Part shown: positions 49,681 through 64,000 of the stretch, piece by piece
Numbering within the stretch: position 1 is the stretch's first letter
How the letters are laid out: every line of letters begins with the position of its first letter
Source of the DNA: an uncultured Gammaproteobacteria bacterium
Lineage (GTDB): Bacteria; Patescibacteriota; Patescibacteriia; Magasanikbacterales; UBA922
Direction: 5' to 3'
NCBI GenBank assembly: GCA_964566225.1
Contig: CAZMHV010000001.1
Span: forward strand, 149,963 to 213,962
Length of the DNA: 64,000 nucleotides
The notes under the pieces: generated by a model
The model's database searches: none
What the model was told of the DNA's origin: nothing
The model's input: only the letters and a program-made list of their open reading frames with translations
Translations under genes and position numbers: made by a program

Positions 49681-50367
49681 ATGCCTTTCATTCTTATCAA
49701 CAAAGAAGCTGGGTGGACCAGTCATGACGTGGTTGGATATTTGCGCAAAGTCACCCGCCTCAAAAAAATTGGCCATGCCGGAACCCTGGACCCATTTGCT
49801 ACGGGTTTGCTTATTGTTGGCATTGGACGGGACGCTACCAAGCGCCTCGATGAATTTAAAAATAAAAAAAAGACGTATGAGGCCACGGTGCATTTGGGAG
49901 CAGTGAGTGATACCTATGATAGCACCGGAATTATAACCCCTACTGGGGCAAATATAAAAAGTATTCAAAAAGAACAAATTGAGCTGTTACTAGCACAATT
50001 TTTTGGTACTCAAGAGCAAATTCCACCTATGTACTCTGCCAAAAAAGTAGGTGGTGAAAAATTGTATGACCTGGCAAGAAAAGGTATAGAAATAGAGCGC
50101 AAACCCCATACTATTACCATCGAGAGTATTCGCCTTGGAGAAATCAAGGACAATGAATTTACTCTACAAGTGACCTGCTCGCCTGGGACCTATATTCGTA
50201 CCCTAGTGCATGATATTGGAAGTAAACTTGGCGTAGGCGCCTACTGTGAGACGCTCAAACGAACAGCCATTGGTGAATTTTTGGTTGAGAGTGCCCATGA
50301 AGTAAAAACCCTCACCCGTGAAAATTGGGAGACCGTGTGCTTTGACCTGCCCACCTTGTCCCCATGA
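49681..50367 (+). CDS. truB: tRNA pseudouridine(55) synthase
   Basis: Catalytic Asp motif GHAGTLDPFATGLL. Short form lacking a PUA domain. Confidence 0.9.
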   Translation: MPFILINKEAGWTSHDVVGYLRKVTRLKKIGHAGTLDPFATGLLIVGIGRDATKRLDEFKNKKKTYEATVHLGAVSDTYDSTGIITPTGANIKSIQKEQIELLLAQFFGTQEQIPPMYSAKKVGGEKLYDLARKGIEIERKPHTITIESIRLGEIKDNEFTLQVTCSPGTYIRTLVHDIGSKLGVGAYCETLKRTAIGEFLVESAHEVKTLTRENWETVCFDLPTLSP

Positions 50368-50474
50368 CAAGACTTGACAGAGGTGGTATTATAGGATATA
50401 TTTGGCTATCTTTCCGCAATTCTGCGGCGAGATCTGGCTCTGTGCCAGAATCCTTAAAACCAACTCTGTGGTAG

Positions 50475-51068
50475 GTGAATATGGACCACCCTGTCGACAT
50501 CATGTTCGACAATCCTCGGGTGGACAAGTTCACCCGTGATTTATTTGTCGATCTTGCGATCGACCTCGGACTCGGCTTGTCTGAGCCAGACATTGAATTG
50601 ACCACCCTGGTGGTGAAGCAATTCATGAATGGTTTGTACACGCTCCTGTGTGAGTGGGAGGCTGGAACCGGGAGAACTGACAACCCGTACGCTTTGCTGC
50701 TCCTGCTGAACGAAATGGCAACGTTTCCCATGCGAGAGGACTGGAAAGCGCGCACACGGCAGCAGTTCGAATGCTTCCAGTTTCAACTGAGGCACCGATT
50801 CGAGCAAGAACCATGGGCCAAACGTCAGTCACCGCAGGATCCGACCATCCGAGAAGTCCAACCTGCTCGGTGGTGGAAGATCATGACCGGCACCGGCATG
50901 ATCTTGTTTCACAGGTTCCTCGTGAGAGACCTGAGGAAACGCGACCTGCACATTCGACGTGGGATACGTACGGTCGCACGAGCGAACCGAGCCAAGCGCA
51001 TGCCCATGGCTACGGCCACAGCCGAAACTGATGCTACGTCCGACGACGAGCACAAGCGTTCGGCCTGA
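50475..51068 (+). CDS. Hypothetical protein encoded in a GC-rich (~58-60%) island
   Basis: ORF with balanced amino-acid composition and GC-rich codon usage unlike flanking genes; the competing antisense ORFs are Arg/Pro-rich. Confidence 0.45.
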   Translation: MNMDHPVDIMFDNPRVDKFTRDLFVDLAIDLGLGLSEPDIELTTLVVKQFMNGLYTLLCEWEAGTGRTDNPYALLLLLNEMATFPMREDWKARTRQQFECFQFQLRHRFEQEPWAKRQSPQDPTIREVQPARWWKIMTGTGMILFHRFLVRDLRKRDLHIRRGIRTVARANRAKRMPMATATAETDATSDDEHKRSA

Positions 51069-51451
51069 GCTACCCTACAGAGGAAATCACGTGGTGGTTG
51101 TAGAATCGTATTCTCTCCACCACGTTCCCCTGCCCTTTGGTATCAAACATGTTTGGTAACAGTGGGCAGGGTTTTGTATTTTGCAAAACAAAAAAAGAAT
51201 GTTATACTTTTTTTGTTTTGATTCTGAAACTCCGTAAATAAAACCTTTGTTCTTTACTTATAATCAACTTGAATAGAGTGAATGTTTGATGGGTAAAAAA
51301 ATAATTTTTCAATTTTCAAGAATTATTTTTCAACCCGTCAACGTTTCTCTGTTCCCCGAAAATCACCGGGGTCGTTGACTAGCCACTGTTTCAAAAAGGC
51401 AATTTCTGCCTTGCGAGACTTTGCCGATAATACGGAGAAGGGGTAAGGGTC

Positions 51452-51907
51452 TTGAAGAAACTTTTTGACCTGATCGAGGCGTTTCAAAGGCTCCTCCTGG
51501 CTCGGATCGCCGAGTACAACCTGGGCAGTCCCCCTGCCCTCTCGAGCGACCAACTGGCTACCCTGCTGGAACTCTTCAGCAAGCTCGACCGCTACGACGC
51601 GGCGTCCCTCGCCATGAGGCACACTGGCGCCAAGGCGGGCAACCGCCTCTATGAGGCGAAGCGCGAGCAGTTCTGTCTCGCCCTCCCCGAGGAGCTGCGC
51701 CCGTTCTTCGTCGAGGCGCAGACGATGGGGCGTGTCATCGCCGAGGCAGGGTGCTACACCCTGAATGACGCTCGTTGGTGGGATCCCCCACAGGTTCCGC
51801 TGCAACGGCGAGTCTTGGCGGTGCGACCGCTGCCAAGTGTCGACACTGCGTCGGAGACAGTCCGGCGAGCAATGCTCTCCCCTCGAACCGCGCGCATCGG
51901 GCCGTAG
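51452..51907 (+). CDS. Hypothetical protein in a GC-rich island (TTG start per the ORF track, preceded by GGAGAAGGGG)
   Basis: Balanced composition on the + strand against Arg-rich antisense frames, with an SD-like purine tract upstream and a strong terminator downstream. Confidence 0.4.
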   Translation: MKKLFDLIEAFQRLLLARIAEYNLGSPPALSSDQLATLLELFSKLDRYDAASLAMRHTGAKAGNRLYEAKREQFCLALPEELRPFFVEAQTMGRVIAEAGCYTLNDARWWDPPQVPLQRRVLAVRPLPSVDTASETVRRAMLSPRTARIGP

Positions 51908-51936
51908 ACCTCCCAGGTCTCCGGCTTGTATCTTTT

Positions 51937-52010
51937 GGCGCACGAACGTTTCGTGCGCCAGTCCTGATTTTTTTTATCACACTCTGTGGTAGAAAAAATC
52001 AGGACTTTTT
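51937..52010 (+). terminator. Tandem hairpin terminator closing the GC-rich island, possibly also serving minus-strand uvrC
   Basis: GGCGCACGAACGTTTCGTGCGCC followed by AGTCCTGATTTTTTTT...AAAAAATCAGGACTTTTTTATTTT. Confidence 0.7.
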
Positions 52011-53362
52011 TATTTTCGAGAAATTTTTCTTTGTTTGCGTTGAAACGTAATAGCAAAGCGATGTGCTTCGTCACGAGTACGAATGAGAATTTCTTGATGT
52101 TCGTTCACCCAGTTCACAAAATTTCTTCTGGCTTCCAAAACATCTCGCGCCACTTGCTCAGAGTTTTCAAAGAGTGAACGTGCAAAAGTAAACTCATTTT
52201 TTTTACGATCTGGGCCTTTGGCAATACCCACGAGTGGAATAAAAATGTGAAGTTCTTGGAGAACGTGGTCCACACGATTGACTTGTGGTTTACCACCATC
52301 AATGAGGAGCACATCTGGAAATGGCCACTCAGGATGATTGAACCTTCGGCGCATTACTTCTTCAAGACAGTCAACATCACTTTGACCTTCGACTGTTTTT
52401 ATTTTAAATTTTCGATATTCAGATTTTACTGGTCCGGCACTATCTGATACAACCATACTTGCTACCTTACCAGTGGTACCGAGATTAGAAATATCATAGC
52501 CTTCAATACGACGAACACGATACTCAGTTTCGTCAGTCGTAGAAATTTGTCCTGGCAAACTTACGTCAGAAACCATTTCACGATTGATGAGTGTCACATC
52601 TTGGATATGATACAGTGACTGCAGTATATCTCGCACTCTCCCTGCTTCTTCAAAATTTTCTTCTTTGGCCGAGCGTGTCATTTTCTTTTCAAGTTCTTGA
52701 ATCAGTTTTTTCTTTTCACCTTTCAAAAACATGATGAGTGGACGAATGACTTTTGCTTTGTATTCTGCTGGAGAAATTGCACGCACACAAACACCCAAAC
52801 ACTGCCCCATTTGATAATACAAACACGGACGCTTTTGATCGGGCACACAGGATGAAAAGTGAAAAATTTGTCTGAGTATTTTGAGCGCTGCTGCAGTGTT
52901 GAGTCCAGGGTAAGGACCAAACACATATTGAAATTGTTTCAAATCCATTTCATCTTTTTCATCAAATTTTTTTCCTTGTTTTTCGGCTTTTTTGCGCAAT
53001 TCAAATTCGTGCTGACGCATGGTTTTGATATGTGGGTATTCGTCTTTGGTTATGACAATGTAATTCCAACTTCGATTGTCCTTGCCAAGCACATTGTATT
53101 TGGGCAAGTACGCTTTGATGGTGTTGGCTTCCAAAATAACTGCTTCGAGCACTGAATCGGTAACTTTGTATTTGATACTCACCACTTCGTGCATCATGGC
53201 CTCAATAGGACGAGTCACTTTTTTGATACGAAAATAACTCCGCACACGGTTGATGAGCGAAGTCGCTTTGCCAACATACACCAGCTCCTTTTGATTATTG
53301 TAAAACAAATAAATTCCAGGAGAGTCGGGTAAATGGAGTTGTTCAAATTGTTCTTTGGTCAT
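52010..53362 (-). CDS. uvrC: Excinuclease ABC subunit C, short form lacking the C-terminal (HhH)2 domain
   Basis: GIY-YIG N terminus (GIYLFYNNQKELVYVGKATSLINRVRSYF), a Cys-containing UvrBC region, and an RNase H-like endonuclease domain (YDISN...IDGGKPQ). Confidence 0.8.
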   Translation of the reverse strand: MTKEQFEQLHLPDSPGIYLFYNNQKELVYVGKATSLINRVRSYFRIKKVTRPIEAMMHEVVSIKYKVTDSVLEAVILEANTIKAYLPKYNVLGKDNRSWNYIVITKDEYPHIKTMRQHEFELRKKAEKQGKKFDEKDEMDLKQFQYVFGPYPGLNTAAALKILRQIFHFSSCVPDQKRPCLYYQMGQCLGVCVRAISPAEYKAKVIRPLIMFLKGEKKKLIQELEKKMTRSAKEENFEEAGRVRDILQSLYHIQDVTLINREMVSDVSLPGQISTTDETEYRVRRIEGYDISNLGTTGKVASMVVSDSAGPVKSEYRKFKIKTVEGQSDVDCLEEVMRRRFNHPEWPFPDVLLIDGGKPQVNRVDHVLQELHIFIPLVGIAKGPDRKKNEFTFARSLFENSEQVARDVLEARRNFVNWVNEHQEILIRTRDEAHRFAITFQRKQRKISRK

Positions 53363-53569
53363 ACGCTATATAATAGCACAAAATTTTAAACTTATCCACA
53401 TGCCAAAATTGACAAGAGTATAAAAAATTGCATAAAGTATGCTCATATGATGAAAAAAGTACAGAGATTTTTTGACCTGTCACCGTTTTCACCGTTTCGT
53501 CCGGATATTCTTTTTTATAGGTAAACTGTACGCCCACGTTTGGGCGTTTTTTATTTTTTATTTTCGCGT

Positions 53570-54244
53570 ATGCGGATACTCATTATTGAAGACCAAATAG
53601 AAATCCTCGACTTTTTGAAAATGAATTTGGAAGCAAACTGTTTTGTGGTAGATACGGTGACCGACGGACGACAAGGTGCCCGACTCGCCTGTGCCTTTAA
53701 TTATGATTTGATTGTACTTGATAACCACTTACCTTCAAAAAAGGGCATTGATATTTGCACCGAAATCCGTGAAGCAGGCAGGAGAACCCCCATTTTGATG
53801 CTGTCTGTAGAATCTGACGTGGTCAAAAAAGTTCAAGTACTTGAAAAAGGTGCTGATGATTACATGACCAAACCATTTGCTTTTGAAGAACTTCTCGCTC
53901 GAATACGAGCACTTATTCGTAGGCCGTCGCACATGATTCACGAAACCTATCAACTTGAAGATTTAGTTGTTAACTTTAGCACACTCCAAGTAACCCGTGG
54001 TCAAACCGTGTTACGTCTCACCAAAAAAGAATTTATGATCTTACAACAGCTTATACGCAATCGTGGTGAGGTTGTTTCTCGCGTATCACTCATGGAGCAT
54101 GTATGGGACGTACAAGGAGATTTGTTTTCCAATACCATTGAGACCCACATGGCGACACTGCGCAAAAAAATTGATGCCAAATTTGATAAAAAACTTATCC
54201 ACACGGTATCAGGGAGAGGTTACAAAATAGCGGCTTACCTATAG
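53570..54244 (+). CDS. OmpR-family response regulator
   Basis: Receiver domain (phospho-acceptor D in LIVLDNHLP, conserved T/K) plus a winged-helix trans_reg_C domain; start set at MRILIIED. Confidence 0.85.
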   Translation: MRILIIEDQIEILDFLKMNLEANCFVVDTVTDGRQGARLACAFNYDLIVLDNHLPSKKGIDICTEIREAGRRTPILMLSVESDVVKKVQVLEKGADDYMTKPFAFEELLARIRALIRRPSHMIHETYQLEDLVVNFSTLQVTRGQTVLRLTKKEFMILQQLIRNRGEVVSRVSLMEHVWDVQGDLFSNTIETHMATLRKKIDAKFDKKLIHTVSGRGYKIAAYL

Positions 54245-54345
54245 TTTTTCTCTCTTTTTAGCCCCATTTTTGTGACCGTGAGACTTTATGAAAACTTTAT
54301 CTCCACTTTGCTATACTACACAGGAGTTACTCTTGACCCCTCTCT

Positions 54346-54972
54346 ATGAGCGAAACATCTTTGAAAGAAATGGAAACACTTTCTTCCAACCTTTTTCACA
54401 ATATTCTCAATCCACTCACCGTCCTTTCGCTTCAAATTGACGATCAGTTTCGTCGTGGTCCCAACATGCAACGACAGATCGACGCAATGATTCACCACAT
54501 AACACATTTGGAATACTTTGTTTCACTCTTGTGTGAAAACATTACCCCCACTTCTTTTGAAAAAAAATTTTCTGTCAACGAAGAAATTGAGTCCGCATTG
54601 GAGATAACTTCATACCGAGCCAAAAAAAATAATATTCAAGTGTTGTCCCTCCTGCTCCAAGAAACTTCGTTGCAAGGAAACCAACTCCAATTTCATAAAC
54701 TTTTGCTTGATCTCATGAGTATTTTTATGAACGAAGCGAAGTTAGAAGAAAATTTTGATATTGAAGTTGTGCATGAAAAAAAAATTGAAATTTTACTGGA
54801 AAAACGAAAAAGAAATAGTGTCCTCATATTTTCGGTAACTGGTATACCTGTGCACGAAGAAACACTGCAAGACTTACGTCAGCTGTTTGAATATGCCTTT
54901 GATATGAAAGGTGAAGTATTTGTACGTGGAACCCGAGCAGAGATAACCTTACGGTTTAGTTCCGAAAAATAA
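54346..54972 (+). CDS. Sensor-less, cytoplasmic histidine kinase-like protein (HisKA H-box plus a degenerate HATPase_c)
   Basis: H-box FHNILNPLTVL, an N-box-like HKLLLDLMSIFMNEAK, and weak G-boxes. No TM or sensor domain, and adjacent to the response regulator. Confidence 0.55.
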   Translation: MSETSLKEMETLSSNLFHNILNPLTVLSLQIDDQFRRGPNMQRQIDAMIHHITHLEYFVSLLCENITPTSFEKKFSVNEEIESALEITSYRAKKNNIQVLSLLLQETSLQGNQLQFHKLLLDLMSIFMNEAKLEENFDIEVVHEKKIEILLEKRKRNSVLIFSVTGIPVHEETLQDLRQLFEYAFDMKGEVFVRGTRAEITLRFSSEK

Positions 54973-54981
54973 TACCAGTAG

Positions 54982-55686
54982 TTATTTGAGATGCAAATAG
55001 TACTTTCTTTTGAGAGGAGAAAATTTTTCAATAGCATAGCGAAGCATCGTACGAGGCATTTTGTGAGCATGTTTATCCAAAAATGCTTCTTCGATCACTT
55101 GGTCACGCTTGCCAACTTCCCGCAGCATCCAGCCTACGGCTTTGTGTATGAGATCGTGTTTGTCGTGGAGTAAAATTGTGGCAATGTCAAATGTAGGTTG
55201 AAATTTATTTTTGCGAATAAATGCAGCCGTGGCAACTATGGCAATGCGTCTTTCCCACAAATTTTGAGAATGTGCCAGTGTGGTCAAAATACTCACGTCT
55301 TTATCGAGAAGGTATTCACCCACGATTTTGTGTGCCGAAGTATCTACCAAGTCCCAGTTGTTGATGTGTTTGGTGTTTTGCAAATAAAAATTATATACTT
55401 TTTCTTTTTGTATTTCCGTACCCTTTTCAAATTGGTGGACCAAAATAATCAGCGCGATAAGACGTGATTCGTGTACTGGTGAATCCAAAAGTTTTTTTAT
55501 TTCATCAAAAGCAAGGGTGAAAAACTCTTTGGCAATTTTACGCGACTGTGGCACGGTGATGCCATAAAATACATCACCCTCACCATATTGCCCTTTGCCA
55601 GTTTTAAAAAAGCCACTGAGTAATTTGGCTTTGATTGGATCTTTGTGTGCAGTAAGTTTTTGGTGAACGTCTTTTGAGTGTAACAT
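54982..55686 (-). CDS. alkD: DNA alkylation repair enzyme (AlkD/AlkC-like HEAT-repeat glycosylase)
   Basis: PF08713-like helical repeats with WDLVDTSA and WERRIAIVATAAF. Confidence 0.72.
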   Translation of the reverse strand: MLHSKDVHQKLTAHKDPIKAKLLSGFFKTGKGQYGEGDVFYGITVPQSRKIAKEFFTLAFDEIKKLLDSPVHESRLIALIILVHQFEKGTEIQKEKVYNFYLQNTKHINNWDLVDTSAHKIVGEYLLDKDVSILTTLAHSQNLWERRIAIVATAAFIRKNKFQPTFDIATILLHDKHDLIHKAVGWMLREVGKRDQVIEEAFLDKHAHKMPRTMLRYAIEKFSPLKRKYYLHLK

Positions 55687-55705
55687 ATTTTGTAATCAAG
55701 TTCGC

Positions 55706-56191
55706 TTAGGGTTGCAAAAGATATACCACCAAAAGTGCCACACTCCCCCACCATCCAATGTCTGAAACAATCAAACTCAGTGCAATTTTGGTTTGCCACA
55801 CAGCAGGCAATAATTCTTTTTGTTTTCCTTTTTTTTCTCGCTCAAGCATGTAGGGGCTCACCACAAACGACAGAAAACAACCATTGAGTATCAGCAGCAC
55901 CCCAAGCAAAGCATGCAGGGCGGGAATTCCCCAAAAGGGTTGTTGTCGATACAAAAATATTCCTCCAATGGTAGCAAGTATAATGCCTACCCAAATCATG
56001 GGTTTGGTCACTTTGTGTGTGCGAGTGGTTGCTTCTGTCCAATAGGCAGATTTTCGTCCCAAAAATCCGTGTATATCAATAACGGTGACCGCACCAAGTC
56101 CAATAATGAACCCTGCAATAAACGAAAAAAGCCCAATAAAATCCAATACATTAATTGAGAGACCAAATAGCATAATTGAGGTAACTAGCAA
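55706..56191 (-). CDS. Hypothetical integral membrane protein
   Basis: Four predicted TM helices; overlaps the tspO 3' end. Confidence 0.45.
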   Translation of the reverse strand: MLVTSIMLFGLSINVLDFIGLFSFIAGFIIGLGAVTVIDIHGFLGRKSAYWTEATTRTHKVTKPMIWVGIILATIGGIFLYRQQPFWGIPALHALLGVLLILNGCFLSFVVSPYMLEREKKGKQKELLPAVWQTKIALSLIVSDIGWWGSVALLVVYLLQP

Positions 56192-56666
56192 AACTCACCC
56201 AGAGTAAATATGGAATAAGTAAATACGCTGCGACTCGAGAGATTCTGTAAAACGAAAGCATGGTCGCCACAATAGCAAGCCACAAAGCAGCAATTTCAAG
56301 CAAAGCAAGTCCAGGACTTTGGAGACCAAAAAATAAAATTGACCACAGTGTGTTGAGAAATAACTGAAACAGAAACAGGGCCAGCGCCATGGTAATGTGG
56401 TTGTGCATGCCTGTAAACTTATAAATTTGTTTGCGAATACCAGACCCAGGCAAACGGCGCCATACCAAAAAAGCTGCGACGCCCATGAGAATAAACAGCA
56501 GTGTCCACACAGGACCAAATACCCATGAAGGTGGATTGAGTGCGGGTTTTTCAAGAGCTGCATACCAGGTAGGAATGCGAGACGAAGTAAACAGTGCTCC
56601 AATGCCTCCAGCGAGCTGTGGCAAAAGTAGTGAAACAAAAAGTTTGATGGGGTGTTTGATGGTCAT
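56151..56666 (-). CDS. tspO: TspO/MBR family tryptophan-rich sensory protein
   Basis: WYAALEKPALNPPSWVFGPVWTLLFILMGVAAFLVW and five TM helices. Confidence 0.72.
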   Translation of the reverse strand: MTIKHPIKLFVSLLLPQLAGGIGALFTSSRIPTWYAALEKPALNPPSWVFGPVWTLLFILMGVAAFLVWRRLPGSGIRKQIYKFTGMHNHITMALALFLFQLFLNTLWSILFFGLQSPGLALLEIAALWLAIVATMLSFYRISRVAAYLLIPYLLWVSFASYLNYAIWSLN

Positions 56667-56706
56667 ATGTAGAGAATTGTATCACAAATAGCACTGGTGG
56701 TGAATG

Positions 56707-57921
56707 TTATTTGGTTTGTTCACTCAGATCACTCTTTTGATCCACTGACTCCACCACAAAACTCATGCGGCCCAGCACCTGTCCATTTGCGGTTTTTACA
56801 TACACGCGCCACTTGCCTGCAGGAACATTATTTTTGAACGAAAATCCACGGAATCCTTGACTGCGTCCACCCGTGAGCACAAACGACAAATCACTTTTGT
56901 TTACCCACTCTTTTTTGGTTTCATCAAAATATTTCCACTCATGAATAATTTTGGTTTGAAGTTTGCCTGGTGCAAAAATAGCGGTGTACACATACACACT
57001 TTCGCCGCTACTTTTGTGAAATACTTCAGTTTGAAATAATTTTTGCCACCAGGTGCGAGGTTCTACGCTCACCGTATAGCCACTCGCATTTTTTTCAATG
57101 CTGTGCGCCAGTGACATTTCACGAATAGAAAGTGGAATAGGTGGAATGAGTTTGGCAAAATACAGTGCGTTCAAAAAGACAAAAAGTGTGAGAATGGTTG
57201 AAGCCACTCGAATGCGAAATTTTTGGATATCTTTGTTGGCAAACATGAGCAGCTCAGCAAAGCCAAACATAAACACCAAACTTGAAACTCCAGCGATAAC
57301 AAATACTTTGGCGGACAAAGACTGCGTAGCAAAAGCAACAAAAATAGTTGACAGGGTAAACAAAATAAAATAGTACACGCCCAGTTGTATGGTGATGCGT
57401 GAATAGTATTTTTTGAATACGTCGTTGGAAACCATGAGCAGCACCAATAATGCCAAGAGGAGCCAACTCACAAAAAATGTTCCACTAAAAAAGTAAAAAA
57501 TAAATACGCCACTAAGGAGCGCTCCATAGGTGAGCTGCACTACCAATGGTGAAAGCAGCCGCAGGTACTCAAATGCTCGGTAGTGAGGCAAACGGTGGGC
57601 ATCGTAGGCTTGCATCCACACCAGTGTGCCACTCGCAATGGCAAAGTAAATGCCGAGCAAAATAAACGTGGAAGTAATGTTGATGTTTTGAAATGTAAAC
57701 GCATCAAGCAGCACACCAAAAACAAGCGTGGCCGGCATAAGCACACGCTCGTATTTTTGATACCAGTGTTTTATTTTTTGAAAACGAAGAAGTGAGGTGA
57801 GGTGGTGAAGAATTGGCACAGGGTGGAAATAAATATGTGTGTAGTGTAGCAAAAAAGTTGTTTTGTGGCAAAACAAAAACACACCATTCCCTTCTCCTCC
57901 GCAAGACATTGAATGCATCAA
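56707..57921 (-). CDS. Hypothetical polytopic membrane protein with a C-terminal soluble beta-rich domain; start uncertain, possibly Met62 at 57738
   Basis: Seven to eight TM helices then a ~120-aa soluble tail; the first ~60 codons lack TM character. Confidence 0.5.
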   Translation of the reverse strand: MMHSMSCGGEGNGVFLFCHKTTFLLHYTHIYFHPVPILHHLTSLLRFQKIKHWYQKYERVLMPATLVFGVLLDAFTFQNINITSTFILLGIYFAIASGTLVWMQAYDAHRLPHYRAFEYLRLLSPLVVQLTYGALLSGVFIFYFFSGTFFVSWLLLALLVLLMVSNDVFKKYYSRITIQLGVYYFILFTLSTIFVAFATQSLSAKVFVIAGVSSLVFMFGFAELLMFANKDIQKFRIRVASTILTLFVFLNALYFAKLIPPIPLSIREMSLAHSIEKNASGYTVSVEPRTWWQKLFQTEVFHKSSGESVYVYTAIFAPGKLQTKIIHEWKYFDETKKEWVNKSDLSFVLTGGRSQGFRGFSFKNNVPAGKWRVYVKTANGQVLGRMSFVVESVDQKSDLSEQTK

Positions 57922-58015
57922 TATATTGCGGCGTTGCGGGAATGATGTGTTGTTTGTTTCCCCACGAACGTGAACAGGATGTTCATGTTCGTGCGCCTGG
58001 GCGCGTGGTGTTGGC

Positions 58016-58867
58016 TTAGGCGGCCGAGGCCACCTGCTCCTGATAGCCGAGCACCAGCGCGCTGAAGCGATCGTAGGCCAGGCGGCCCGCTTCGGTGACC
58101 TCGTCGTGCGAGAGCTCGGCGCCGGTGATGCCGGCCGCCATGTTGGTCATGAGCGACACACCGGCCACACGCAGACCACACCAGTTGGCCGCGATGGCCT
58201 CGGGCACGGTCGACATGCCCACGGCATCAGCCCCGAGGACGCGGAGCATCCGAATCTCGGCAGGGGTCTCGTAGTTGGGCCCCTTGAACGCGGCGTAAAC
58301 ACCCTGCTGGAGTTCCCCCACTCCACACTTGCTGGCCGCTTGCATGAGCATCAGCTCACCGTGACGGTACAGATTGCTCTGCCCGGGGAAACGCGGTCCG
58401 AGCTTGTTGTTGTTCGGCCCGACCAGGGGGTTCTCGCCCGTGAGGTTGAGGTGATCCACGATGGCCATGAGGTCACCACGCTTCCAATCCACCCGGATGC
58501 ACCCGGCGGCGTTGGTGAGCAGGATGTCGTTGACACCCATCTCCTTGGCCAAAAGCACCGACTGCACCACCTGCTGGGCCGTGTAGCCCTCGTTGAGGTG
58601 CAGACGACCCGCGAACGCGATGGTGGGCACGCCACTGAGCATACCCATGAACACCTTGCGGTCGTGGCCCTCGACCTCGGTGTTGATGAACGGCCACAGG
58701 GTGCGGAAGTCCACCACCAGCGCCCCCTGGTCGAACTTCTCGACCAGCTTGCCGAGGCCGCTCCCGAGCACGAGCGCGACCTTGGGGCCGGTCCAGCCAT
58801 TGGGCTTTTTCCAGGCCGCGAGACGGGGCAAGAGCACAGACATCACAGTCGAATCGAGTCGAAGCAT
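58016..58867 (-). CDS. Purine nucleoside phosphorylase / 5'-methylthioadenosine phosphorylase family (PNP family 2)
   Basis: VALVLGSGLG phosphate loop, MSTVPEA and NMAAG motifs. About 65% GC. The start is set at MLRLDS, preceded by AAGGAGAAG 7 nt upstream. Confidence 0.8.
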   Translation of the reverse strand: MLRLDSTVMSVLLPRLAAWKKPNGWTGPKVALVLGSGLGKLVEKFDQGALVVDFRTLWPFINTEVEGHDRKVFMGMLSGVPTIAFAGRLHLNEGYTAQQVVQSVLLAKEMGVNDILLTNAAGCIRVDWKRGDLMAIVDHLNLTGENPLVGPNNNKLGPRFPGQSNLYRHGELMLMQAASKCGVGELQQGVYAAFKGPNYETPAEIRMLRVLGADAVGMSTVPEAIAANWCGLRVAGVSLMTNMAAGITGAELSHDEVTEAGRLAYDRFSALVLGYQEQVASAA

Positions 58868-58925
58868 CGCAGCTTCTCCTTTGCGGTAAAGCCCAGTACA
58901 CATTGACTGGGACGGTTGTGGCCGG

Positions 58926-58954
58926 ATACTACCCTTTTTTAAAAAAATTTGCAA
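58926..58954 (-). promoter_or_regulatory. Sigma70-like promoter TTGCAA-N17-TAGTAT driving the GC-rich PNP gene
   Basis: Near-consensus -35/-10 hexamers with 17-nt spacing, upstream of the Shine-Dalgarno sequence and start. Confidence 0.5.
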
Positions 58955-58966
58955 GGGGCCAAGCAC

Positions 58967-58994
58967 AAAAAATCACCTCTTGTAAGGTGATTTT
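58967..58994 (-). terminator. Rho-independent terminator after the DUF1697 gene, end of the accessory operon
   Basis: Hairpin AAAATCACCTTACAAGAGGTGATTTT with flanking T-runs. Confidence 0.7.
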
Positions 58995-59008
58995 ATTTTT
59001 ATTCTTTT

Positions 59009-59536
59009 TTACTTTTCTTCACAAAGTTTCCGCGCTGTGTTCACATTGCGCACAGTCATGAGTTTGTAATACTTGTGGCTAATAACTTTGTTCAAATGAC
59101 TCTTGTTTACATTCTCTCGGCGTATATTCCAAATCAAGGCACCCTTTACATAGCGAATATCCACACATTCTTTTTTGATGGGAAGTTCATCAATAGTTTT
59201 TTTGGAGTCAATTTCTGGGAATAAATAGGCAACGTCGGTTCTTTGGATAGCATCATTGGCCCACTCAGGCGGAATGGCCTTGGCAATGGTCTGCATTTGT
59301 GTGCGAGTTTTAACAAGCGTCGCAACTTCAAAACCAAATGTTTTTTCAATTGCTTTTTCCATTTCTTTTTGGAGCAGCTCAGGTTTTTTGTTTGATTCAA
59401 ACAGTACGTTGCCAGAGTTGATGTAGGTGGAAACGTTGGAGTAGCCAAGTGACTCACACATGGCTTTGAGTTTTTTCATGTTGACTTGGCGAGTGGTGCC
59501 GACGTTGATGCCGCGCAGGAGGGCGATGTGGTGCAT
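59009..59536 (-). CDS. DUF1697 family protein
   Basis: N-terminal signature IALLRGINVG...STYINSGNVLF; start set at MHHIALLRG. Confidence 0.7.
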   Translation of the reverse strand: MHHIALLRGINVGTTRQVNMKKLKAMCESLGYSNVSTYINSGNVLFESNKKPELLQKEMEKAIEKTFGFEVATLVKTRTQMQTIAKAIPPEWANDAIQRTDVAYLFPEIDSKKTIDELPIKKECVDIRYVKGALIWNIRRENVNKSHLNKVISHKYYKLMTVRNVNTARKLCEEK

Positions 59537-59550
59537 AAAAATATACCTAA

Positions 59551-59835
59551 TTAACAAACACTAAACGCAGAACTTTCATCGATAGAAATATCATCTGTTT
59601 TACACTTTGGACATCGGTCAGCTGCATTTTGACAGACCTCTCCCCCACACGCTTCGCACACTCCAATTTGTTCTGGCAAAAGAACAACTTCGTAGGCTCG
59701 TCGTTCAGGATGGTCGATTCGTTTTGATTTTCCGCAGTCTTTGCATTTGTACAGGGTAAAATAAAAACCACGACCACCTGAGACCGTACACTCTTCACCA
59801 CACACATTACATTTTGCAAAAAAGTAGGTTGCCAT
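59551..59835 (-). CDS. Small zinc-ribbon protein with four CxxC pairs
   Basis: CNVCGEEC...CKDCGK...CEACGGEVC...CPKC. Confidence 0.5.
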   Translation of the reverse strand: MATYFFAKCNVCGEECTVSGGRGFYFTLYKCKDCGKSKRIDHPERRAYEVVLLPEQIGVCEACGGEVCQNAADRCPKCKTDDISIDESSAFSVC

Positions 59836-59840
59836 AAAAT

Positions 59841-60593
59841 TTAGAGAGCTTTACCCACCGCCCCCACATACGCACAAAAATCACAGTTCGCACTCGCCTT
59901 GGGCACACTTTTTTTATCAAGACATTTTTTGGCAGCGACAATTGCGTCCTCCACCCATGCGTCGTCGCCATCGTACGCAATGAGTGTAATATCAAATTCA
60001 AGTTTGGCGTCAAAGGCTTTTCGGTCGGTTTGACCATTGCAGTACACAAAGTATCCGGTGCTCGAAACTTTGTATCCATTGCAGCGAAGCAGCCACTGAT
60101 ACATTTCCATTTGGCGTTTGTATCCGTCTTGCCAGTCTTTGTTTAGCTCGGTAATTTCTTCACTCTTCGAAGTTGACTTGTAGTCCACCACAATATACTC
60201 GCCTTTTGAATTTTGCCACAAATCATCAATGGCACCAAACACCAAAAAATTGGTGGCCTCATGGAGATATTGAACACCGGTAAAATTGTGTCGCCACGCA
60301 TCCAAATTTTCATGCGCTACAGGCCGAGCATCCACACCATATTTTTTGATTAAAGGATGCGCATTGCCACTGGCGCGATGAATATCAAACTCAAGCTTGA
60401 GCAAATGATCAACCGCCGAATTGAGCGCAAACGGAAATCCAGGTGGCCGCCCTACGCCGAGGCGTCGATCGAGGTAGAAGCAACGTGGACAGTCGAGAAA
60501 GAGTTCAATTTTGGAGCGGGAGAGTTTGAAGGGGGTTTCTTGTTTAGGCGTGTAGAGGTTTTTGGTGCGGTGAGGGGTGTAGTACTCGGACAT
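59841..60593 (-). CDS. Cas4-like PD-(D/E)XK nuclease with probable Fe-S cluster cysteines (stand-alone, no CRISPR array)
   Basis: RecB-fold motifs (GAIDDL, VVDYKSTSK, QMEMYQWLL) plus Cys at the N terminus (CPRCFY) and C terminus (C...CDFCAY). Confidence 0.65.
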   Translation of the reverse strand: MSEYYTPHRTKNLYTPKQETPFKLSRSKIELFLDCPRCFYLDRRLGVGRPPGFPFALNSAVDHLLKLEFDIHRASGNAHPLIKKYGVDARPVAHENLDAWRHNFTGVQYLHEATNFLVFGAIDDLWQNSKGEYIVVDYKSTSKSEEITELNKDWQDGYKRQMEMYQWLLRCNGYKVSSTGYFVYCNGQTDRKAFDAKLEFDITLIAYDGDDAWVEDAIVAAKKCLDKKSVPKASANCDFCAYVGAVGKAL

Positions 60594-60607
60594 AAAAAAT
60601 AGTTAAT

Positions 60608-60994
60608 CTACAAAATATCTTTATACTCAGGATAATTTTCTCGAATAATATTTTTCCAAATAGAAGTTTCATTCCCTCCAGCAATATCATTTTTATGATA
60701 TACCAAAAGCACATGCACCCTGCCACTTTCTTTGTACACTGCCACAATACATCGATTCCCCGAAGCATGACGAGAAACATTTGTCCCCGCAATTTTAAAT
60801 TCTGTTTTGCAAATTTGGATTTCACCAGCTTCAACAATAACCTCTGCCACACTTTTTTGAAATAACAAATCAATTTGCTCAAACTCTTTTTGCAAAAGTG
60901 TCAAAGTAAAATCCCAAGCAGTTTTATATTTTTTGGCAAAAGTTTTTATGAAATGCCTCTCGGCATAATTTTCAAAAACAACTTCATAACCCAT
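60608..60994 (-). CDS. Putative toxin, RelE/ParE-fold-like, cognate to the Panacea-domain antitoxin
   Basis: The C-terminal beta-strands (RCIVAVYKESGRVHVLLVYHKND) resemble the RelE/ParE core, and the gene lies 3 nt downstream of the antitoxin gene. Confidence 0.45.
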   Translation of the reverse strand: MGYEVVFENYAERHFIKTFAKKYKTAWDFTLTLLQKEFEQIDLLFQKSVAEVIVEAGEIQICKTEFKIAGTNVSRHASGNRCIVAVYKESGRVHVLLVYHKNDIAGGNETSIWKNIIRENYPEYKDIL

Positions 60995-60996
60995 AG

Positions 60997-61671
60997 TTAA
61001 AAAATCTCATCAGGATCCTCCTGAGTAAACAGACCATACGAGACTATCTCATTTTCTTTGGCATACAAATATGGAAACTGTTTATGGGTAAAATCAACAA
61101 TTTCAGACGTTTTTTTATTTTTCCATTTTTTTTCAATTTTTTGAATCAACTTTTTTTCTTCGTTATTTAAAAGAGACAAATCAACTTTTGCGCCACTTCG
61201 CGACTGCGAAATCATCATGGCTCCATCTCGAGTTTGGGTAATATTAATTTCACCATTTTCAAACATTTCATCAACCAGTCGAAAATACACCTCTGAAACG
61301 GGGCCGTAGGGCAGCTTGCGATACTGCATTCCGCTCATGCTTTCGAGATGAAAGTAGAACCACCCAAAATCTGCAAAATACAAAAGCTTGGCAAGTTTTG
61401 TTTTGGTAATTTCCCCATCCAAACGCAAAAAAGCCAATATCATTTGTCTGTATTTTTCATAATTTGGGATATCTCCGTTTTCAAGCTCCTGCAATGAAAT
61501 GCCAAAAAGATTCGAAAGCTTTTGCGCTTCAGAAAGAGTGAGCTCTTTTTTGCCTTGTTCGAGAGCAATATAGGAAGGACGAGAAATACCAAGCCGAGTG
61601 GCAATTTCTGCTTGGGAAATATTGGCCTTGAGACGGAGGTCTTTTAATTTTATGCGTGTGGGTTGATTCAT
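60997..61671 (-). CDS. HTH-XRE plus Panacea (DUF4065/SocA-like) domain antitoxin (PanA-type)
   Basis: N-terminal XRE HTH (LRLKANISQAEIATRLGISRPSYIALEQG) and C-terminal KLAKLLYFADFGWFYFHLESMSGMQYRKLPYGPV, typical of PF13274. Confidence 0.7.
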   Translation of the reverse strand: MNQPTRIKLKDLRLKANISQAEIATRLGISRPSYIALEQGKKELTLSEAQKLSNLFGISLQELENGDIPNYEKYRQMILAFLRLDGEITKTKLAKLLYFADFGWFYFHLESMSGMQYRKLPYGPVSEVYFRLVDEMFENGEINITQTRDGAMMISQSRSGAKVDLSLLNNEEKKLIQKIEKKWKNKKTSEIVDFTHKQFPYLYAKENEIVSYGLFTQEDPDEIF

Positions 61672-61750
61672 ATGTATTTATACTACAAAATTTGTGTTAA
61701 GATGTCAAACATTGGGTGTTAGGATATTTGACACCCATGTCTTAAAACCA

Positions 61751-62014
61751 CTATGAATTAGATTTTTTCATAGCTTTTATTGACCAAACTATAGATCTGA
61801 CAAACTGAACAAAAAAATACGGTAATAATATAAATAGGTATACTCCTTCCTCTCGATCGAAAATTGCTATAAAAAATCTTTTATATATCTTTGAAAAAGT
61901 GTGCTCGTCAGCTATGAATAAATTTATAATTACAGGAAGTATTAACAAACCAAATAATACGGATAAAATTAAAATAATCCACTCTTTTGCAAATATTTTT
62001 TTTTCAAACTTCAT
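61751..62014 (-). CDS. Small hypothetical membrane protein (2 TM)
   Basis: ORF with two hydrophobic helices in the accessory island. Confidence 0.35.
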   Translation of the reverse strand: MKFEKKIFAKEWIILILSVLFGLLILPVIINLFIADEHTFSKIYKRFFIAIFDREEGVYLFILLPYFFVQFVRSIVWSIKAMKKSNS

Positions 62015-62051
62015 AAATTTAATAATAAAAGTAATATTTTAAAAATCCACA

Positions 62052-62507
62052 CTAAAAATTCCATTCAATTTTTTCAATCTTTAAAGTCCAAACTCGAAAT
62101 TCAATTTTTTGATTATCAATCAATGTACTTTCCCCTTGACCTAATATTATATATTTTGAATCATACTCATCAGTCAACCAAACTCTTAAATTAAATTCTC
62201 CACTGGATGGTATATTCCCATCAACAGGTAACCAATAAAATGATGCATCCAAACTCCCTGCGGGTATTAGTCGTCCTTTTTTAAAAAATTTAGTTACATT
62301 GCCTATCTCAAAACCGTGAATATATAAATTAATTTTTCCAGTATTTAAGACTTTAATTTTATTTTCCATAGGCAAAAAAGAAGCTGCAACAAAATCATTT
62401 AACTTCTTTAAACGTCTATTAATTAAAATTTGCCATACCGCAAATATACAAGCAGCGATTCCGGTAATACCCTGAATCCCTAACGAATATATTTCATACT
62501 GTGTCAT
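62052..62507 (-). CDS. Hypothetical membrane-anchored protein translationally coupled to the DUF2075 ATPase
   Basis: ATGA start/stop overlap with the upstream gene; an N-terminal TM then a beta-rich ~110-aa domain. Confidence 0.5.
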   Translation of the reverse strand: MTQYEIYSLGIQGITGIAACIFAVWQILINRRLKKLNDFVAASFLPMENKIKVLNTGKINLYIHGFEIGNVTKFFKKGRLIPAGSLDASFYWLPVDGNIPSSGEFNLRVWLTDEYDSKYIILGQGESTLIDNQKIEFRVWTLKIEKIEWNF

Positions 62508-64000
62508 ATACTAGTTTTTACTGATTTATTTTTAAACCACTCCCTCGCCTCATCATCCACAAAATACACATAACACCCCTTCATCCCTCGTGTCATCAAT
62601 GTACGATATGTATTTTTTATAATCCTATCCGCGGTCTTCATTGCACTTTCAGGATCCTTTTTATATTGAGTTTTAAAACCTTGTAAAGATTTATCTGTTT
62701 TAGCACGCTTAAACGGATCGGTCACAATTTTTCCATTTCGTACGGTTAAATCTGGTCCAACGATAACTCCAACATAGTCCATTTCAAGCCCCTGACAAGT
62801 ATGAATGCAGCCAACTTCATTGACTGATTTTGACGCCATGATCCACAAATTTCCATCACTTGCCAAATTCCATTTCATACCAAAATTTTTTTCAGGAATT
62901 TGAATATCCGCAACTTCAGGATTTTTTTTGCTTACCCAGTTCCAACAGTATCCAGCGACAAGACGTGCTTTATTTGCAAGTTTATTTTTCTCAAAAATAA
63001 TATCTCGAAGAATATTTGGATCATCAATAACTTGAAAATCATACTCAATATCTTTCAAATCAGTATTTGCCGTTTCATGAATTTGCAAAGCATTATCGAG
63101 CCATGCTAAGTAACCATCTGATCCATTACATCGAAATTGTGAACTGAGTTGTAATGTATGAACATTGGCTCTTTCAAATCCCGCCCACATTTTAATTTCT
63201 CCTATTTCTCCGATGTCACTCATGGTGACTTTTTGGTCTTCATCTATAAAAAATACAGAAAATTTTGAAGCTTGAATAATTTCTTTAATCTGATTTTCTC
63301 CAAGATGTTTAAACATTCCTGATTTTTCATTAAGTCGATGTGCTTCATCTACGATAAGTGCATCAAAAAAGTTATTTTCAACATCAATAAAAGCACCTGA
63401 CCCTGTAAAAAAATGAGAAAACTCTGTTCTTTTCATCTGCCCTGTCAGTTTACTCTCATAAACAGCACGTGGAGCTGCATTTTTTGTAACATACTTTGCA
63501 AGTAAATTATATTTTTTTGTCAGCTCTACAAGCAAGTTTACTGCCACTACAGTTTTGCCTGTTCCAGGACCTCCTTCAATAATTAAAACATTCTTATTAT
63601 TTTCAGAAGATTGTCTCGCAAGATTTAGTGCTGTTTCATATACTACTTTTTGATCATCAATCATGATAAACTCTTTGTTCCCTTTCAATAACTTTCCAAG
63701 ACTATCAGCCAAACTTTTTGAAGGTCGAATTTTTCCATTTTCAATTCGATACATTATTTTATTTTTATCACCTTGTTTTACAAATCGTTTAATGAATGCT
63801 TGCAATTTTTTTGCATCTCCACGAAAAAAAGCTGGCGCTTTCTGCAAGTATTCTGAATAAAAATCATTATCAATAACATTATCCTGTAAATAATTATGCA
63901 AATAAGCACACGGTTGTAATAGAATATTTTCTTGATAAACAGTTTCATTAAAACTTTGTAACAACGATGTATACGACCAAGCTTGATATGATGGATGACT
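62504..64000 (-). CDS. DUF2075 domain ATPase (AAA/helicase-like), 5'-partial; N terminus lies beyond the window
   Basis: The frame stays open to the window edge. Walker A GGPGTGKT, Walker B LIVDEAHRL, and a PF09848-typical C-terminal region (YRTLMTRGMKGCYVYFVD). Confidence 0.8.
   Translation of the reverse strand, partial: SHPSYQAWSYTSLLQSFNETVYQENILLQPCAYLHNYLQDNVIDNDFYSEYLQKAPAFFRGDAKKLQAFIKRFVKQGDKNKIMYRIENGKIRPSKSLADSLGKLLKGNKEFIMIDDQKVVYETALNLARQSSENNKNVLIIEGGPGTGKTVVAVNLLVELTKKYNLLAKYVTKNAAPRAVYESKLTGQMKRTEFSHFFTGSGAFIDVENNFFDALIVDEAHRLNEKSGMFKHLGENQIKEIIQASKFSVFFIDEDQKVTMSDIGEIGEIKMWAGFERANVHTLQLSSQFRCNGSDGYLAWLDNALQIHETANTDLKDIEYDFQVIDDPNILRDIIFEKNKLANKARLVAGYCWNWVSKKNPEVADIQIPEKNFGMKWNLASDGNLWIMASKSVNEVGCIHTCQGLEMDYVGVIVGPDLTVRNGKIVTDPFKRAKTDKSLQGFKTQYKKDPESAMKTADRIIKNTYRTLMTRGMKGCYVYFVDDEAREWFKNKSVKTSI

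Follow-up and report, generated by a model that had tools for sequence, protein, structure and literature searches.

A probable defence nuclease-helicase of the DUF2075 family, its predicted MazG-like operon partner and an abutting membrane-protein gene

When the stop codon of a putative defence gene overlaps the start codon of a gene for a small membrane protein, are the two genes functional partners? The question arises at the end of a 64,000-nucleotide stretch of DNA (the window) from contig CAZMHV010000001.1 (assembly GCA_964566225.1). Here a gene for a DUF2075 ATPase runs out of the window, and its stop codon is shared with a gene for a 151-residue, membrane-anchored protein, named p151 in this study. 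The original prediction for this locus took the pair to be a two-gene defence module. The analysis described below leads to a different reading, which we consider fairly probable as a whole: the DUF2075 protein would be a defence nuclease-helicase of the Nhi-like type, its operon partner would be a MazG-like gene situated just past the window edge, and p151 would be an unrelated mobile neighbour. All of these genes are on the minus strand, and the features on which the argument depends are as follows.

62504-64000, minus: DUF2075 gene, 5'-partial coding sequence (residues 126-623 of 623), from the PF09848 match and contig L001
63551-63574, minus: Walker A motif GGPGTGKT, from the translation; G268-K274 invariant in a 40-sequence alignment
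63338-63349, minus: Walker B motif DEAH, from the translation; D343, E344, A345 and H346 invariant
62561-62608, minus: C-terminal family motif YRTLMTRGMKGCYVYF, from the translation; Y590-R596 invariant or nearly so
62504-62507, minus: ATGA stop/start overlap of the DUF2075 gene and p151 (TGA 62504-62506, ATG 62505-62507)
62052-62507, minus: p151, membrane-anchored beta-sandwich protein of 151 residues, from the open reading frame (ORF), its relatives and an AlphaFold model
62421-62492, minus: single transmembrane segment of p151 (residues ~6-29), followed by basic RRLKK, from a hydropathy scan
L001 7417-7776, 397-756 nucleotides past the window end: MazG-like gene, 119 residues, from the PF12643 match

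The DUF2075 reading frame contains 498 codons without a stop and is still open past the window end. A 12.6-kb contig (L001) was retrieved by exact-sequence look-up of p151. It agrees with window positions 59511-64000 with 0 mismatches in 4490 nucleotides and runs 8.2 kb past the window end, and the complete DUF2075 protein and the MazG-like gene, which lie beyond position 64000, were taken from it.

The DUF2075 protein and its MazG-like neighbour

The portion of the DUF2075 protein encoded in the window covers the entire Pfam model PF09848 (DUF2075, now SLFN-g3_helicase; model positions 1-354 of 354, E value 9e-103; score 344.6 bits, cut-off 24), and the full-length 623-residue protein matches it with an E value of 1.7e-102. 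A 5'-partial DUF2075 protein with Walker A GGPGTGKT, a DEAH Walker B and the C-terminal motif YRTLMTRGMKGCYVYF had been predicted, and all of these elements are present on the minus strand. The Walker A and Walker B (DExH) motifs of the nucleoside triphosphatase are intact, and they are invariant across the family in the 40-sequence alignment. Residues 1-125, which are encoded outside the window, carry the pattern ...IEY...RVDF...IFIELKQW, in which E69, D80, E98, K100 and Q101 are invariant in the same alignment. Because the E69, D80, E98-x-K100 signature is invariant, the N terminus is assigned as a PD-(D/E)xK nuclease domain; the earlier suggestion of a nuclease in the missing N-terminal part is borne out by L001.

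The AlphaFold model of the 623-residue protein has a predicted local distance difference test (pLDDT) score of 83.5 and includes an N-terminal beta-strand core. The fold matches of this model are RecD2, SLFN14, SLFN11, Dna2, RecD, IGHMBP2, Dda and Upf1, and on account of these structural matches (RecD2, Schlafens, Dna2 and others) the C-terminal part is assigned as a superfamily 1B (SF1B) helicase. A PDB sequence search with the single DUF2075 sequence gave no match, and a PDB profile search with the family gave weak matches in the P-loop region only (best E value 0.004). Some relatives of ~770-790 residues (P0036, P0070, P0074, P0080, P0085, P0096, P0106 and P0119) carry a C-terminal LexA-type Peptidase_S24 domain, and these nuclease-helicases may therefore be controlled by autocleavage or through the SOS response.

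Nhi of Staphylococcus epidermidis (SERP2475) also joins a PD-(D/E)xK nuclease to DUF2075, and it degrades phage DNA (bioRxiv 10.1101/776245); Nhi-like is organised in the same way as Nhi (10.1101/2022.05.11.491447). The profile of the present family was aligned by hhalign with the first 399 of the 611 residues of Nhi-like (Bacillus cereus FSL H8-0482, gene 2729017301), as given in the supplement of Millman et al. (2022). The alignment has a probability of 90.4%, an E value of 1.4e-6 and 22% identity over 273 collinear columns; it spans residues 35-349 and keeps the IEY, RxD and IExK motifs as well as Walker A and B in register. This suggests that the two proteins are remote homologs with the same architecture, which falls short of proving co-membership in one family.

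The MazG-like gene ends 21 nucleotides upstream of the DUF2075 start codon in L001. Its product matches PF12643 with 62.6 bits (cut-off 27), and its closest solved relatives are the pyrophosphatase 4qgp and dCTP pyrophosphatase 1 (DCTPP1)/RS21-C6, the latter aligned almost from end to end with an E value of 2.3e-16. In this alignment the E..E and EE..D positions that bind metal in DCTPP1 are conserved in the MazG-like protein. By phmmer, a MazG-like gene adjoins the DUF2075 gene in 26 of 46 GTDB loci, or in 26 of 37 if loci with an incomplete flank are left aside. In 24 of the 26, both genes have the same orientation, the MazG-like gene lying directly before the DUF2075 gene in 16 (frequently overlapping it by 4 bp) and directly after it in eight; in the other two it is on the opposite strand. 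The gene is found in all 14 loci whose product is at least 56% identical to the DUF2075 protein, and at a gap of 2-3 nucleotides in all three closest relatives. All-against-all clustering of the flanking ORFs revealed no other recurrent neighbour. As judged from these gene neighbourhoods, the MazG-like gene is a recurrent operon partner of the predicted nuclease-helicase. The idea of a two-gene module therefore survives with a change of partner, which is the upstream MazG-like pyrophosphatase gene outside the window and not the membrane protein. No account of DUF2075 or Schlafen proteins paired with MazG in this sense was found in the searched literature, and the pairing appears to be undescribed.

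Two further observations concern this gene pair. At positions 7755-7792 of L001, the 3' end of the MazG-like gene is duplicated in tandem over 19 nucleotides (TACTAAGTATAATCAATTG / TAATTATTATAATCAATTG), which accounts for the 21-nucleotide spacer before the DUF2075 start; at many other loci this pair of genes overlaps by 4 bp. In about four Bacillota loci (L029 5694-7486 and at least three others), the DUF2075/MazG pair is accompanied by genes for a ~200-residue S-adenosylmethionine methyltransferase and a ~390-residue protein, and these loci may represent an enlarged form of the module. In the scan of the flanking proteins as a whole, five matches each were to PADLOC mad2 and Pfam HNH_4.

The p151 family and its junctions

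The original prediction had made conservation across genomes the point on which the pairing of the ATPase with the membrane protein would stand or fall, and the pair is not kept together: it occurs in 0 of 49 DUF2075 loci (the 46 GTDB loci and the three closest relatives) and in 0 of 18 p151 loci (7 and 11). No relative of p151 or of the 87-residue ORF that follows it (p87) was found by phmmer within 4 kb in the 46 GTDB loci. The three closest DUF2075 relatives (68-69% identity) have no same-strand, unannotated product of ~150 residues downstream; the genes at this position encode an unannotated 257-residue protein on the opposite strand, a Bact_hydrolase protein and an nSTAND3-Mrr protein, again on the opposite strand. 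Conversely, seven p151-relative neighbourhoods contain no DUF2075 gene, and a further 11 metagenome p151 loci contain neither a DUF2075 nor a MazG-like gene. The seven neighbourhoods, with coordinates for those relatives that are wedged between other genes, are as follows.

L004 (6001-6471): directly after secY, before adk
L006 (6001-6465): between an aminoacyl-tRNA synthetase gene and mreB
L008: overlapping the stop codon of an unknown 341-residue gene
L010: near Pur_DNA_glyco and VanY
L012: after mgtE
L013 (5597-6052): between gatB and a UPF0004 (MiaB-type)/radical-SAM gene pair
L014: between ArsP and DUF6938

In these surroundings the p151 relatives stand out by composition. Their GC content at third codon positions (GC3) is 0.24-0.37, against 0.46-0.77 in the housekeeping genes on either side; examples are 0.72, 0.27 and 0.77 for the aminoacyl-tRNA synthetase gene, the p151 relative and mreB, and 0.52, 0.24 and 0.58 for gatB, the p151 relative and the radical-SAM gene. 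The relative in L013 is flanked by merely 28 and 33 nucleotides of non-coding DNA. Since genes of foreign GC3 are situated amid core operon genes, recent and independent single-gene insertions are implied, and the entry of p151 relatives into Patescibacteria core operons looks like a series of repeated events of this kind. Neither ends nor repeats delimiting a mobile unit were found.

The ATGA overlap is present as had been described, and the coupling read from it is no evidence of partnership. Seven of the eight p151-family starts that were read are ATGAC or ATGAG (Met-Thr or Met-Ser), so that these genes carry an out-of-frame TGA of their own, and the same tight junction recurs behind secY (L004) and behind the unrelated 341-residue gene (L008). 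The overlap is thus a property of the p151 start, whatever gene lies upstream, and therefore does not bear on partnership. Taken together, these comparisons suggest that p151 is not part of the DUF2075 system and is instead a separately acquired, foreign single gene, a neighbour by chance.

The description of p151 as a protein with one N-terminal transmembrane helix and a beta-rich domain was confirmed. The hydropathy scan gives one hydrophobic segment (residues 6-29), and in the AlphaFold model (pLDDT 89) a helix at residues 3-37 precedes a beta sandwich of eight strands. The positive-inside rule would place this sandwich on the cytoplasmic side. Among 5.8 billion clusters, 15 relatives were found at E values of 0.01 or below, with 54-65% identity along most of the sequence; the NTGKxNLY and GF motifs are invariant among the relatives, and the sole source name among the 15 is Patescibacteria. 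A profile search of 1.84 billion representatives found 120. This sequence evidence marks p151 as a genuine gene, conserved within a small family. Searches with p151, p87 and a 128-residue ORF described below (p128) found nothing in Pfam, NCBIfam, PADLOC or PHROGs, and the Foldseek search with p151 gave no significant match (best E value 0.18 in PDB and 0.027 in BFVD). The modelled fold is that of a generic beta sandwich, not a pore-former. The proposal that the membrane protein acts as an abortive-infection effector accordingly finds no counterpart in any of these databases or among significant fold matches, and a restriction-modification methylase adjoins p151 in one of ~18 loci only. A phage origin was considered and rejected, as a scan of viral contigs gave no relatives. 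Multi-repeat matches of the p151 profile (a WSC-domain protein and a 2224-residue protein) were judged likely to be compositional and were not used.

The short ORF that follows p151 is situated at

61751-62014, minus: p87, 87 residues with two hydrophobic segments, from the ORF call and hydropathy scan

and had been presented as a miniprotein with two transmembrane helices. The two hydrophobic segments are there; the sole match of p87 in 5.8 billion proteins is itself, and p87 may not be a functional gene. A conserved pair of p151 and a small transmembrane protein was also considered and discarded: the small ORFs that come after p151 relatives resemble neither one another nor p87.

Defence, repair and the low-GC island

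The DUF2075 protein family has more than 8000 relatives. Full-length identities of 65-69% are found in Patescibacteria, Spirochaetia, Elusimicrobiota, Melainabacteria, Betaproteobacteria and Peregrinibacteria, and identities of 50-61% in Bacteroidota, Bacillota, Gammaproteobacteria, Bifidobacteriaceae and Methanobrevibacter. Members are also carried by plasmids, among them one of Methanosphaera and one of Hymenobacter. On the Hymenobacter canadensis plasmid NZ_CP114769.1 (L061 5001-8987), two tandem DUF2075 genes lie by genes for a restriction endonuclease, a DNA methyltransferase and DUF4747, and no gene in this locus is annotated as a nucleotide pyrophosphohydrolase. The strong matches in a PADLOC scan of 147 flanking proteins from the 46 DUF2075 loci included type IV methyl-directed restriction enzymes (E value 1e-302), pAgo (4e-289), type IIG and type I restriction enzymes, HamA (5e-107), a defence dCTPase (4e-155), PbeA, AriA, Vsr and PDC-S01/S23/S32. 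From this distribution the family seems to be widely and horizontally transferred.

At the present locus the gene belongs to a compositional island, which comprises window positions ~60600-64000 and ~770 nucleotides past the window end. GC3 is 0.17 in the MazG-like gene, 0.22 in the DUF2075 gene, 0.21 in p151, 0.23 in p87, 0.36 in a helix-turn-helix (HTH)-Panacea gene and 0.26 in p128, giving an island range of 0.17-0.36 against 0.39-0.49 in the flanking genes. The accessory island that had been proposed at this end of the window is therefore real as a low-GC3 segment. Its single-strandedness carries no information, because every large ORF from ~55000 to 64000 is read from the minus strand. 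No tRNA lies in window positions 50000-64000 and no convincing flanking direct or inverted repeat in L001, so the borders of the island are set by composition only. The wide spread that includes plasmids, the defence genes among the neighbours and the low-GC3 island together favour mobile defence over a housekeeping role, and the DUF2075 gene is probably a defence gene. The view that it is defence-like and lies in a horizontally acquired island is supported.

The remaining explanations differ in the partner and in the purpose of the enzyme. In an abortive-infection module, the ATPase would sense infection and p151, with or without p87, would kill the cell. The overlap is real, no terminator-like site lies between the DUF2075 and p151 genes, and p151 is membrane-anchored and has the island's low GC3, yet the two families do not co-occur in either direction (0 of 49 and 0 of 18 loci) and an identical abutting junction is found behind secY and the 341-residue gene. 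Moreover, p151 is a single transmembrane segment plus a generic beta sandwich that has neither PADLOC, PHROGs nor fold matches, p87 is an orphan, and the DUF2075 protein has a nuclease effector of its own; we regard such a module as very improbable. That the DUF2075 protein is a stand-alone defence enzyme of the Nhi-like type, with a MazG-like gene that often merely travels along or that defends independently by nucleotide depletion, would agree with the verified single-gene action of Nhi-like, with the 11 intact loci that lack MazG-like and with its varying position upstream, downstream or, in two loci, on the opposite strand. We consider this unlikely in view of the tight adjacency in many loci (4-bp overlaps or gaps of 2-3 nucleotides), which is kept in Bacteroidota, Proteobacteria, Patescibacteria, Bacillota and methanogens although none of the other neighbours is. 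A role of the pair in DNA repair or genome maintenance, in which damaged or misincorporated bases are processed and the pool is sanitised by the pyrophosphatase, is suggested by the very high cross-phylum conservation (65-69%), by the structural relatives Dna2 and RecD2, which are repair enzymes, by the housekeeping sanitiser DCTPP1 and by the hint of an SOS linkage in those relatives with a LexA-type Peptidase_S24. Against repair, the distribution is patchy and resembles horizontal transfer, with archaea and plasmids included, the composition at this locus is foreign, there is no conserved chromosomal context, defence genes are among the neighbours, and Nhi-like, to which the architecture and the remote homology point, is a verified defence protein. 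Such a role is accordingly given a low probability.

Several points weigh against the reading that we prefer, a defence nuclease-helicase of the Nhi-like type with a MazG-like operon partner and a chance neighbour, p151. No PADLOC model matches the DUF2075 protein over its full length, and the homology to Nhi-like is remote (22% identity), in a comparison that covered only the first two-thirds of that protein. Identities of 65-69% across phyla are unusually high for a defence gene and would fit repair as well. Eleven intact DUF2075 loci, mostly from Bacillota and at ~50% identity, have no MazG-like gene, so that this partner is facultative. The roles given to the MazG-like protein and to DNA modification are drawn by analogy only. 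Finally, p151 shares the island's low GC3, and a functional link in this one genome may exist.

On the preferred reading, the helicase motor would load on foreign DNA and feed the nuclease, which would degrade it. The target may be modified (methylated) DNA, as reported for Nhi-like, which phages escape through loss of a DNA methylase (10.1101/2022.08.27.505566). The MazG-like protein would work on the nucleotide pool: it would clear modified dCTP-type nucleotides set free by the degradation, or it would lower dCTP. The substrates of DCTPP1 include 5-methyl-dCTP and further abnormal cytosine nucleotides (PMC4491611, PMC13510388). The methylase-loss escape and these substrates motivate the proposed connection of pool sanitation with the breakdown of modified DNA and do not demonstrate it. 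A bolder proposal, possible in our view and rather doubtful, is that the MazG-like gene and the PD-(D/E)xK/DUF2075 gene constitute an undescribed two-component variant of Nhi-like immunity and, separately, that p151 is a mobile cassette. In such a variant, the nuclease-helicase would destroy modified, for example cytosine-methylated, invading DNA, and the pyrophosphatase would be required since modified dCTP re-incorporated into the host chromosome would otherwise turn the nuclease on self; alternatively, the pyrophosphatase might be a dCTP-depleting second arm. As a promoter-less single-gene cassette, p151 would insert at the 3' ends of expressed Patescibacteria genes and exploit translational coupling via its ATGAC start.

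By gene neighbourhood, a nuclease-helicase related to the eukaryotic Schlafen helicases and to Nhi-like is coupled to a DCTPP1-like enzyme in Bacteroidota, Patescibacteria, Proteobacteria, Bacillota and methanogenic archaea; if the coupling is functional, DNA-degrading immunity would be linked to sanitation or depletion of the nucleotide pool. The locus also illustrates that a stop/start overlap is no evidence that two genes work together if one of them is a mobile addition, and that the informative partner gene can lie just past the edge of a window. The p151 family, in turn, illustrates the entry of single foreign genes into core operons of the reduced genomes of the candidate phyla radiation (CPR).

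Other features of the island and its surroundings were as follows.

61680-61708, minus: promoter-like TTGACA-17-TAGTAT upstream of the HTH-Panacea gene, consensus match only (10/12)
60997-61671, minus: HTH plus SocA/Panacea antitoxin-type gene, from Pfam SocA_Panacea and HTH_3
60608-60994, minus: p128, 128-residue ORF whose start overlaps the HTH-Panacea stop; no family match

The HTH-Panacea gene matches SocA_Panacea with 55.9 bits (cut-off 25.7) and HTH_3 with 53.5 bits (Pfam). Together with p128, a candidate toxin partner, it probably constitutes a separate Panacea-type toxin-antitoxin unit within the same island; the promoter-like site (61708-61680) lies downstream of p87 and before this gene. 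After the island, at normal GC content, a Cas4-like protein, a 94-residue ORF and a DUF1697 protein are encoded at window positions 59009-60593 (minus strand). The Cas4-like protein has 250 residues and PD-(D/E)xK character (PDDEXK_1, E value 1.5e-14; Cas4 models, ~1e-8), and the 94-residue, cysteine-rich ORF beside it is a possible zinc ribbon. Local GC peaks of 0.51-0.52 occur at 58016-58966 and 50001-52000, the window mean being 0.40. At 58016-58966, many long spurious ORFs of the kind expected in GC-rich DNA overlap a 316-residue ORF, and the segment around this peak may be another foreign one.

Comparison with known systems

The MazG-like protein belongs by its Pfam match to the all-alpha MazG-like NTP pyrophosphatases (PF12643) and aligns over nearly its full length with DCTPP1/RS21-C6, and the metal-binding positions are kept. 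The bacterial protein has 119 residues and is a predicted pyrophosphatase. For the DUF2075 protein, the best PADLOC match is PDC-S41 (E value 1.8e-19), which is likewise a single large DUF2075-type protein; the match falls into two stretches, the better of which covers profile positions 439-622 of 657, the C-terminal third. The searched literature on PDC-S41 contained nothing relevant.

The eukaryotic group III Schlafens (SLFN11, SLFN14, SLFN5) share the PF09848 helicase domain, and SLFN11 and SLFN14 are among the top fold matches, whereas sequence searches against the Schlafens in PDB gave no match. In both groups a nuclease is joined to the PF09848 helicase, and an antiviral role, which is predicted for the DUF2075 protein, is common to them. 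The N-terminal nuclease of the Schlafens differs in being a distinct tRNA-cleaving domain and not a PD-(D/E)xK domain.

The organisation of a nuclease followed by a DUF2075 helicase is shared with Nhi (Bari et al., 2022) and AbiO, and the structural neighbours Dda, Upf1 and Dna2 reported for Nhi were also found for the present model. The PADLOC profiles of Nhi (PDLC02372, positions 185-331 of 470) and AbiO (PDLC02350, positions 174-329 of 468) match the DUF2075 protein in the Walker A-B region only, with E values of ~1e-11, which places it outside the Nhi/AbiO sequence family. Nhi-like is built in the same way as the present protein: both are single polypeptides of ~610-620 residues in which a linker joins the N-terminal PD-(D/E)xK nuclease to a superfamily 1 helicase of the DUF2075 type. 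Nhi-like was validated as a single gene, whereas the present family usually travels with a MazG-like gene.

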